Part shown: positions 48,380-50,032 of the stretch, one piece after another
Layout of the letters: each line of letters starts with the position of its first letter
Numbering within the stretch: position 1 is the stretch's first letter
Origin: Bacillota bacterium
GTDB lineage: Bacteria; Bacillota; Clostridia; Oscillospirales; Oscillospiraceae
Direction: 5' to 3'
Assembly: GCA_021768085.1 (NCBI GenBank)
Contig: JAETOJ010000013.1
Location: 2,448 to 66,447 of the forward strand
DNA length: 64,000 nt
Translations under genes and position numbers: made by a program
Notes under the pieces: model-generated
What the model saw: the letters and a program-made list of their open reading frames with translations, nothing else
Told to the model about the DNA's origin: nothing
Database searches by the model: none

Positions 48380-50032
48380 ATGAAAAGAATTGCGTCTCTG
48401 CTGCTCGCCCTGTGCATGGTGCTTGCGCTGTGCGCCTGCGGCGGCACCCCCAGCGGCAACAACCCCAGCAATCCGCCGGCAAACAACAGCCAGTCCGGCG
48501 GGCAGCCCTCCGGCAATGAGGGCGTGGGCGGCACCGCCTACCCCAACCCCCTCCAGGACGTGCGCGTCCGTCAGGCCCTGTGGTATGCCATTGACATGGA
48601 CGCCATTGTGGACGGTCTGTGGAGCAACACCGTCATCGCCGCCCACAAGTCCCTGGTGCCTGAGGGCGCCTGGCAGGCGGACGGCCTAACCGAGTACAAG
48701 TACGACCCCGAGAAGGCCAAGGAACTGCTGGCTGAGGCGGGCTGGGACGGCAGCTACACCCTGAAGGCCGTCTACTACACCGGCAACCTGCTGGACACCA
48801 TCACCGCCATCAAGGGCTATTGGGAGGCCGTGGGTGTGAAGATGGAGTTCGATCTCCTCACCGACAACCTGACGGTTCTGCTGTGGACTCCCTCCCCCGA
48901 CGGCGTCAAGTCCGGTGTTGACTGGGATCTGTGCTTCGCGGGCACTAACGCCCTGACCCTGGGCGAGCTCTACAACCGCCACCACTCCACCGCCAACAAC
49001 AACTCCACCGTGCTGTGGGACAAGGATCTGGACGCCCTCATCGACAAGGCCAAGGTAGCGGTGACCACCGAGGATCAGAAGGCGGCCTACGACGCCATCC
49101 AGAAGTACGAGAACGAGAACGTGGAGACCATCCCCCTGTTCTACATCCCCTCCTGGATCATCACCTCCAAGCATCTGGACATGAAGGGCAACGCCCCCGG
49201 CAACGATCAGTTCTGCTATCAGAAGAACATTCTGGACTGGACCATCGACCGCGCCGACAAAACCATGTACACCAACACGGGCGCTGTCAATGCCCTGGAG
49301 CACACCGCCACCAACCCCGGCCTGTTCTGGCACCAGGAGATCGTGTTTGACCGTTTGCTGAACGCCGACACCAGCCTGACCGCCTCCGACGGGATGCTGG
49401 CCGAGAGCTATGACGTGTCCGATGACGGCAAGGTCATCACCTTCAAGCTCCGCGAGGGCGTGAAGTGGCACGACGGCGAGCCCTTTACTGCCGAGGATGT
49501 GAAGTGGACCTTCGAGTACTACTGCACCGTACCTGGCGCCAACACTGTGCTGACCGACGTCATTAACGATGCCTCCTCCATCGAGGTGGATGGGAACACC
49601 GTCACCTTCACCTTCAACAACCCGCAGCCCAACGCCCTGACTGTGTTCTCCCAGTGGTCCGTGCTGCCCAAGCACTGCCTGGAGAATGTGACCCCGGAGA
49701 ACTTCGCCGCCGACACCTTCTGGCAGAATCCCATCGGCACCGGCCCGTTCAAGGTGGAGAGCGTCAAGCTGGGCGAGTATACCACCCTGGTGCGCAACAA
49801 CGACTACTTCAAGCCTGGCACCGGCAATATCGAGAAGATCTATATGTATCCGTCCAGCGACGCGGGCGATGAAAACCTCATCACCAACGCCATGGCCGAC
49901 AAAATTGACTACGCCTTCTGTAAGGATTCCTCCCAGGTGCAGCAGGTGCAGGATATGGCCGGCTTCAATGTGGACACCGTCAATGTGACCTTCCCGCGGT
50001 ACATCTTCCTCAATATGTTTGAGCGCAGCTAA
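48380..50032 (+). CDS. Family 5 (Opp/Dpp-type) ABC solute-binding lipoprotein, circularly permuted
   Basis: Lipobox [14 protein letters not shown]..AID and [14 protein letters not shown] come before [27 protein letters not shown] and PIGTGPF. Confidence 0.88.
   Translation: [550 protein letters not shown]

Follow-up and report, generated by a model that had tools for sequence, protein, structure and literature searches.

Can a solute-binding protein of a well-known family be recognized, and remain in use, when the two halves of its chain are encoded in exchanged order? The question is raised by one gene in a 64,000-nucleotide stretch of DNA from a Bacillota bacterium of the Oscillospiraceae (GenBank assembly GCA_021768085.1, contig JAETOJ010000013.1, positions 2,448 to 66,447 of the forward strand), referred to here as the window. 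The gene lies on the plus strand at positions 48380-50032, with an ATG at 48380 and a stop codon at 50030-50032, and encodes a protein of 550 residues, P0001. Its relatives, the family-5 solute-binding proteins (SBPs), are among the most studied receptors of ATP-binding cassette (ABC) importers: they are involved in the uptake of peptides, nickel, opines, haem, and sialic acid, and serve as biosensor scaffolds. An initial annotation of the window claimed that P0001 is a circularly permuted member of this family. The analyses described here confirm this reading: P0001 represents a naturally occurring circular permutation of the family-5 (cluster C, OppA/DppA/NikA) SBP fold.

The exchanged order is seen in searches with family profiles and with proteins of known structure. 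The Pfam family SBP_bac_5 (PF00496) matches P0001 with a score of 235 bits against a gathering score of 32.4 bits (E 1.9e-69), but the match falls in two stretches, and it is residues 339-546, towards the end of the protein, that match profile positions 5-208. At the level of the genome, profile positions 211-327 are encoded 5' of positions 5-208, and the family profile is not matched colinearly. The four other SBP5 genes in the same genome, all located elsewhere, each give a single colinear match. Alignment with Campylobacter jejuni NikZ (PDB 4oet) is likewise crossed: residues 321-477 of P0001 align to NikZ residues 32-183, residues 58-123 to 253-317, and residues 213-287 to 417-492 (of 494). 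The canonical protein P0314, used as a control in the same kind of search, aligned in single stretches.

Exchanging the halves restores the canonical order. A swapped version of P0001 (residues 291-550 followed by 54-290) aligned to the canonical relative P0128 in one high-scoring segment pair (HSP), covering 1-496 of the query and 53-566 of P0128 at 39.5% identity (E 1.6e-118), and single end-to-end HSPs were also obtained with six other canonical proteins, whereas the native order always gave two crossed HSPs. Taken separately, the old C-terminal half is 44% identical to P0128 and the old N-terminal half 36%. In canonical relatives, the residues of the new C-terminus and those of the new N-terminus adjoin within one unbroken segment (..RLFFLNKFPNADGTPAALADYRVRQA.. 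in P0128). The swap is the comparison that the initial annotation had proposed, and the motifs that it quoted are all present, at residues 56, 108, 321 (IVFDRLL), 451 (PIGTGPF), and 540 (RYIFLNM). The two halves do meet as it described, but its placement of the cut at about residue 275 needs correction, as the junction of the old C- and N-termini is at residues 290-294 (DRADK). It had also remarked that this order was not known as a described subtype; in keeping with that, no description or structure of a permuted family-5 SBP was found in full-text literature, in PDB sequence and fold searches, or in NCBIfam.

The gene has a regular layout, with all of its features on the plus strand. A consensus scan finds a promoter-like site (TTGACA-17-TATGAT, 11/12 consensus) at 48248-48276, about 100 nt 5' of the start, and direct reading places a ribosome-binding site, aaggagg, at 48365-48371, 8 nt ahead of the ATG. 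Residues 1-20 (48380-48439; ...VLALCAC) form a signal peptide with a lipobox by consensus, in which Cys20 is the predicted lipidated residue, and the SBP is predicted to be exported as a lipoprotein; among homologues, A19 is invariant and the consensus at the lipobox is ..ACG.. A match of the NCBIfam model 'lipo-invert' to the signal peptide (E 0.05) was set aside as noise. A low-complexity tether of 33 residues follows, rich in G, P, S, and N (residues 21-53, 48440-48538; pLDDT <50 in the model described below). PDB alignment, the model, and the swap test together define residues 54-289 (48539-49246) as the canonical C-terminal half, comprising lobe 2 (domain III) and the final segment of domain I, and opening at the helix that bears the motif quoted for residue 56. 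Comparison of junctions identifies DRADK (residues 290-294, 49247-49261) as the linker between the old C-terminus (..NILDWTI) and the old N-terminus (TMYTNTG..), with D290, R291, and D293 invariant in close homologues. The remainder, residues 295-550 with the stop codon (49262-50032), is the canonical N-terminal half by Pfam, PDB alignment, the model, and the swap test, and holds the other domain I segments and domain II. It closes with a long strand, residues 529-544 (..RYIFLNM), that in canonical proteins continues into lobe 2; in P0001, RYIFLNM at 540-546 is followed by FERS and then the stop.

Models of P0001 and of a canonical relative were compared with known structures. AlphaFold2, given an alignment of permuted members, produced a model of P0001 with a predicted local distance difference test score (pLDDT) of 82.4 and a predicted template modelling score (pTM) of 0.72, in which only the signal peptide and tether are disordered; for canonical P0128, used as a control, the values were 82.0 and 0.77. 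A Foldseek search of the PDB with the P0001 model found family-5 proteins over ~240 columns per alignment with a query-based TM-score (TMq) of ~0.35 (245 and 0.35 for NikZ 4oet), while the P0128 model aligned to the same chains over ~545 columns at ~0.7 (545 and 0.71 for NikZ). As the control aligns over its full length, the half coverage of P0001 reflects sequence order and not model quality. Each half of P0001 superposes separately on PDB members in Foldseek, and no PDB chain is colinear with P0001 beyond about half of the protein. The DSSP string of swapped P0001 agrees with that of the P0128 model at 89% of 490 aligned positions. The order of secondary-structure elements is nearly identical, the differences being one helix fewer near the start, a fused pair of strands, and a different last element. 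These comparisons suggest that P0001 retains the three-domain fold together with its ligand cleft.

The new termini lie at what we take, from the structures of DppA and OppA, to be the crossing from domain I to domain III, one of two hinge strands. In P0001, strand 250-263 would be the sole remaining covalent hinge crossing. Each lobe would now be formed by one continuous stretch of sequence, with the other hinge strand nicked and both ends of the chain at the hinge.

One possibility is that the permutation is adaptive, with a single covalent hinge or contiguous lobes altering opening, ligand range, folding after Sec export, or docking on the transporter. The cut falls exactly at the hinge crossing, and the permuted form persists in both lipoprotein and periplasmic versions. 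It is also the majority form of its sampled clade: in a quick tree of 134 sequences, a clade of 119 members (100 by the SH-like approximate likelihood ratio test, SH-aLRT) contains 76 permuted and 43 canonical proteins. However, canonical and permuted SBPs are found in the same type of operon, and the permeases and ATPases encoded with them are equally similar (about 49-74% identical) across loci of both orders. This comparison revealed no accompanying change in the transporter. Furthermore, circular permutants generally keep their function (PMC2395249). We consider an adaptive role for the permutation improbable.

Phylogenetic analysis was also informative about a second possibility, that P0001 is a chimera in which two different, neighbouring SBP paralogues were fused, one contributing its C-terminal half and the other its N-terminal half. 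Tandem arrangements of SBP5 genes are indeed known, as are proteins with two copies in one chain, such as P0143 (1016 aa). In trees built separately for each half, however, all of the permuted proteins group with the same four canonical proteins in one 15-member clade (100 and 99 SH-aLRT), and because both halves fall in the same clade, it is one protein that was permuted, not two that were joined. Both halves are similar to the same canonical protein, P0128, at the identities given above, and the four other SBP5 paralogues of the genome are ordinary and lie elsewhere. A chimeric origin is therefore very unlikely.

The trees also bear on how often the order has changed. In the 134-sequence tree, a 42-member canonical group is nested among the permuted lineages, with canonical P0129 apart from it, and the supported branches force at least two changes of order. 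A 26-taxon SBP tree rejects a single permuted clade in the approximately unbiased (AU) test (p 0.007). In a careful 58-taxon tree, 0% of the bootstrap trees have one change, yet a single permuted clade is not rejected (AU p 0.14). Independently of the SBP, a single permuted clade is also rejected by a tree built from the two permeases and two ATPases (AU p 0.016), in which basal nodes are weak and outgroup branches long. The cut point and junction are common to all of the permuted lineages, among which the linker is either 5 or 8 residues long; this pattern fits one origin with an insertion or deletion as well as it fits recurrence. More than one switch of order seems likely.

The classical route to a permutant would involve tandem duplication of the gene, in-frame fusion of the copies, and loss of the outer halves. 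The linkers of permuted proteins resemble the end of the tether that precedes the fold in canonical ones (AEGEK-VLYTNGG in P0128, compared with GDGKK-VLYTNSAP in the permuted protein of locus L003), which fits this scheme of duplication, fusion, and truncation. Two proteins found in the searches are of interest in this context. P0143, from a Methanophagales archaeon and with 26 cluster members, is a tandem double family-5 SBP in one chain. P0233, a protein with a single cluster member (L092 6001-7800; GCA_027491435.1, JAOZFG010000021.1), is a second, independent permutation of SBP_bac_5: its residues 43-160 match canonical residues 337-448, residues 224-537 match canonical 31-332, and Pfam profile positions 1-296 correspond to residues 243-549. 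The cut in P0233 lies ~70-80 residues further along than that in P0001 (Pfam profile ~296 compared with ~209). Unlike P0001, it has a C-terminal PT-rich linker and a transmembrane helix. It is unrelated to the clade of P0001, and heads an ordinary Opp-type operon adjoining an M20 peptidase gene. Residues 52-487 of P0001 and residues 31-535 of P0233 each align colinearly across the copy boundary of P0143, which illustrates the kind of duplication intermediate able to yield permutants.

The permuted order is not confined to the source genome. A large protein collection contains more than 120 clusters of colinear full-length homologues with 74-98% identity, from many assemblies, and colinear representatives in a library clustered at 50% identity extend down to 38%. 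Among species-representative genomes, permuted open reading frames (ORFs) occur in an uncultured Clostridia metagenome-assembled genome (MAG), Halanaerobiales, Hyphomicrobiales, several Devosia, and the cultured Flavimaricola marinus CECT 8899. Searching from a canonical member of the clade adds Sphaerochaeta pleomorpha str. Grapes (complete genome), Acidaminobacter sp. JC074, Angelakisella, and a Spirochaetota MAG. The search for homologues of the same order suggested in the initial annotation has therefore found them in many independent assemblies and in three phyla, Bacillota, Spirochaetota, and Alphaproteobacteria, with cultured strains among them. The public names of these members are just 'ABC transporter substrate-binding protein'. 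In diderm carriers the protein has an ordinary signal for signal peptidase I (SPase I), seen by sequence inspection in the Proteobacterial and Halanaerobiales homologues, and the chain opens almost immediately with N-P-L-S-D-x-R-V-R-Q-A, so that the permuted order does not depend on a lipid anchor. Within its own lineage the locus is accessory and patchy: a fragment spanning the junction was found in 3 of 61 species of the genus and in none of 150 other sampled genomes of the same family.

Compared with a homologue that is 80% identical, the ratio of non-synonymous to synonymous substitutions (dN/dS) is 0.19 overall, 0.08 across codons 270-320, which include the new junction, and 0.12 in the last 40 codons. 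The permuted order is heritable and is maintained by selection in independent genomes. Although the source is a draft genome of 110 contigs, the idea that the order is an artefact of assembly or annotation, or a decaying pseudogene left by a recent local rearrangement, is effectively refuted by two further species of the genus that share the order at 98% identity, by the colinear homologues from independent assemblies, with complete or cultured genomes in three phyla and 76 permuted proteins among the 134 sequences, by an open frame with a ribosome-binding site and promoter-like site, and by purifying selection across the junction, so that the assembly rearrangement named in the initial annotation as its possible refutation is excluded.

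What might such a protein do in the cell? Judging from the gene and its neighbours, P0001 is very probably the extracellular, lipid-anchored SBP of an Opp/Dpp-type (PepT family) ABC importer, a natural circular permutant whose ligand would be a nonulosonate. After the signal peptide, lipobox, and tether, the chain begins where that of canonical proteins passes from lobe 1 into lobe 2; it makes up lobe 2 and the old C-terminal segment, continues via the 5-residue linker to the old N-terminus, and ends in the strand that normally leads into lobe 2. P0001 would bind its ligand between the lobes, close, and dock on the two permeases, which would trigger ATP hydrolysis by the two ATPases; a co-transcribed NanA-like lyase would then cleave the imported nonulosonate. 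The mechanism of transport is presumably unchanged by the permutation.

The SBP gene heads an intact operon on the plus strand, in the order SBP, permease, permease, ATPase, ATPase, NanA-like lyase. The first permease (50139-51089) has BPD_transp_1 with BPD_transp_1_N and the second (51086-52024) has OppC_N with BPD_transp_1; both ATPases (52038-53063 and 53053-54102) have ABC_tran with oligo_HPY. The last gene (54099-55034) encodes a lyase of the DHDPS family, for which the best NCBIfam match is N-acetylneuraminate lyase (247 bits against an equivalog cut-off of 281 bits), and N-acetylneuraminate lyase models score well above DapA. A terminator-like hairpin with a T-run, found by consensus scan, follows at 55092-55115 (plus strand). 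On the minus strand, divergent from the operon, lies a YhcH/YjgK/YiaL (DUF386) gene (47594-48151), in which the Pfam match starts at residue 37, so that translation probably begins at the ATG at 48043. Next to it is a gene (46885-47568, minus strand) of the D-lyxose/D-mannose isomerase family.

The same kind of neighbourhood is found at related loci. All of them have two Opp/Dpp-type permeases and two oligo_HPY ATPases, and a NanA-like lyase adjoins the transporter in every permuted locus with enough flanking sequence. Permuted loci of Halanaerobiales additionally carry NanE, a FAD flavoprotein, and a GntR regulator; that of Acidaminobacter carries NanE, ROK, RpiR, YhcH, and esterases; and that of Sphaerochaeta carries a GlcNAc 2-epimerase. 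The module from SBP to lyase is also present in canonical-order loci (L007, P0129, and Clostridium carnis). From this conserved gene neighbourhood we infer that the ligand is a nonulosonic acid of the sialic acid type, such as N-acetylneuraminic acid (Neu5Ac), 2-keto-3-deoxynononic acid (KDN), or an O-acetylated form, and P0001 most likely serves as receptor for an ABC importer of sialic-acid-type compounds (nonulosonates). The source genome has the mannose/lyxose isomerase in place of NanE, and the compound imported may in fact be KDN or some other relative. In a wider context, the combination of a NanA-like lyase, a D-lyxose/D-mannose isomerase, and YhcH with no NanE fits a KDN-type or other non-canonical nonulosonate pathway. 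In many of the nan-linked SBP5 clusters there is, in addition, a gene for a FAD flavoprotein that resembles fumarate reductase (FAD_binding_2 with Succ_DH_flav_C).

Several points count against parts of this interpretation. The lyase scores below the NanA equivalog cut-offs, and no NanE was found in the source genome (90.6% complete), so that the ligand may not be Neu5Ac itself. Retention of the fold is read from homology, predicted secondary structure, and the half-wise Foldseek matches, and any functional effect of the nicked hinge is speculation. Origin by duplication and fusion is a model, and no duplication intermediate was seen within the clade, the distant archaeal double P0143 being the only one found.

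Comparison with characterized systems helps to place the family. Both halves of P0001 are homologous to canonical cluster C SBPs such as E. coli DppA, OppA, and NikA, C. jejuni NikZ (4OET; E 1e-30), and L. monocytogenes CtaP (5ISU). P0001 shares with them the predicted secondary-structure elements, the type of permease and oligo_HPY ATPase, and a lipoprotein export signal; it differs in its permuted order, in the joining of the old termini by 5 residues, and in a predicted nicked hinge strand and contiguous lobes. Closer still are the canonical members of the nan-linked subfamily, which include P0128, P0132 (Lachnospiraceae bacterium), P0314 (Clostridium carnis), P0319 (Proteiniclasticum sp. 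SCR006), and P0129. They align end to end with swapped P0001 at 35-42% identity and fall in the same clade (100/100 support). They also share its operon, in which the SBP gene is accompanied by those for two permeases, two ATPases, and a NanA-like lyase, and frequently by NanE, RpiR or GntR, and the FAD flavoprotein. Their differences from P0001 are an ordinary N-to-C order, a tether ending in AEGEK or similar, and a chain that ends in ..DWVIG.

In the 2021 classification of sialic acid transporters, ST3 (SatABCD) is the only one of the SBP_bac_5 type; it has a fused SatC and has been reported from Actinobacteria and Pasteurellaceae (PMC8461474). SatA of H. ducreyi (PDB 5Z99, 5YYB, 5ZA4) is also the family-5 SBP of an ABC importer encoded in nan (sialic acid catabolism) clusters, a setting that ST3 shares with the locus in the window, and it has the canonical order. 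It is, however, only a distant match, with 57 bits against P0001 and 53 bits, ~30th among PDB sequences, against a canonical clade member; in PDB sequence searches it ranks well below NikZ, CtaP, DppA, and OppA for this clade. Whereas SatC of ST3 is a fusion of the second transmembrane and nucleotide-binding domains (TMD2-NBD2), the two permease and two ATPase genes are separate here, and the nan-linked clade is found in Bacillota, Spirochaetota, and Alphaproteobacteria. In similarity to SatA and in the absence of a fused SatC, the clade would fall outside ST3. Five separate transporter genes are seen in nan-linked loci of both orders (window 46885-55034; L002, L007, L090, L093, L094, L095), and the clade may represent a lineage of sialic acid ABC importers outside the ST1-ST8 classification. 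The fuller proposal, that the SBP order switched more than once within this nan-linked family, possibly with a return to the canonical order, and that the family is a sialic acid ABC lineage outside the eight classified families, is tentative, and we place it a little to the doubtful side of even.

Among ABC receptors there is a precedent: natural circular permutation is known in glycine-betaine binding proteins (OpuAC 2B4L, ProX 1R9L, and AfProX 1SW1) and in type II binding proteins related to them (PMC2395249). In those proteins a bilobed ABC binding-protein fold occurs in permuted orders with a conserved pocket (PMC2395249). They differ from P0001 in belonging to cluster F, in being much smaller and having no extra domain, and in that their permutation was detected structurally, at <24% identity, with no switch of order shown within one orthologous transporter family.

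Other features of the window lie outside this system. An ORF encoding 347 residues at 45767-46810 (plus strand), adjoining the lyxose isomerase gene, has a gene-like GC content at third codon positions (GC3) of 0.89 and no Pfam or NCBIfam match. At 25993-33690 (plus strand), an ORF encodes a protein of 2565 residues in which the only Pfam match is an N-terminal prepilin methylation motif (residues 28-52). With a PilB/T2SSE-type ATPase encoded slightly downstream (35306-37027, plus strand), it resembles a giant pilin, and the cluster resembles one for a type IV pilus.

The interest of the permuted SBP lies in its hinge-located termini, its contiguous lobes, and the presence of both orders within one orthologous operon family. 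A conserved variant with its chain ends at the hinge suggests that covalent continuity is dispensable in one of the two hinge strands, and offers a natural system in which to examine the folding and hinge movement of binding proteins. Matched orthologues in cultured strains, permuted in Sphaerochaeta pleomorpha and Flavimaricola marinus and canonical in Clostridium carnis, allow tests of what hinge connectivity means for folding after export, for opening and closing, and for docking, and the site of the cut points to tolerated positions for engineered permutation or domain insertion. For genome annotation, methods that are sensitive to domain order split permuted SBPs or score them too low. 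For bacterial sialic acid metabolism, an Opp-type importer linked to nan genes, with carriers among gut Clostridia, spirochaetes, and marine Alphaproteobacteria, would lie outside the current classification of transporters. If the order has indeed switched repeatedly, evolution would have tried out, more than once, a Venus-flytrap protein in which a single hinge strand is covalently continuous in place of two.

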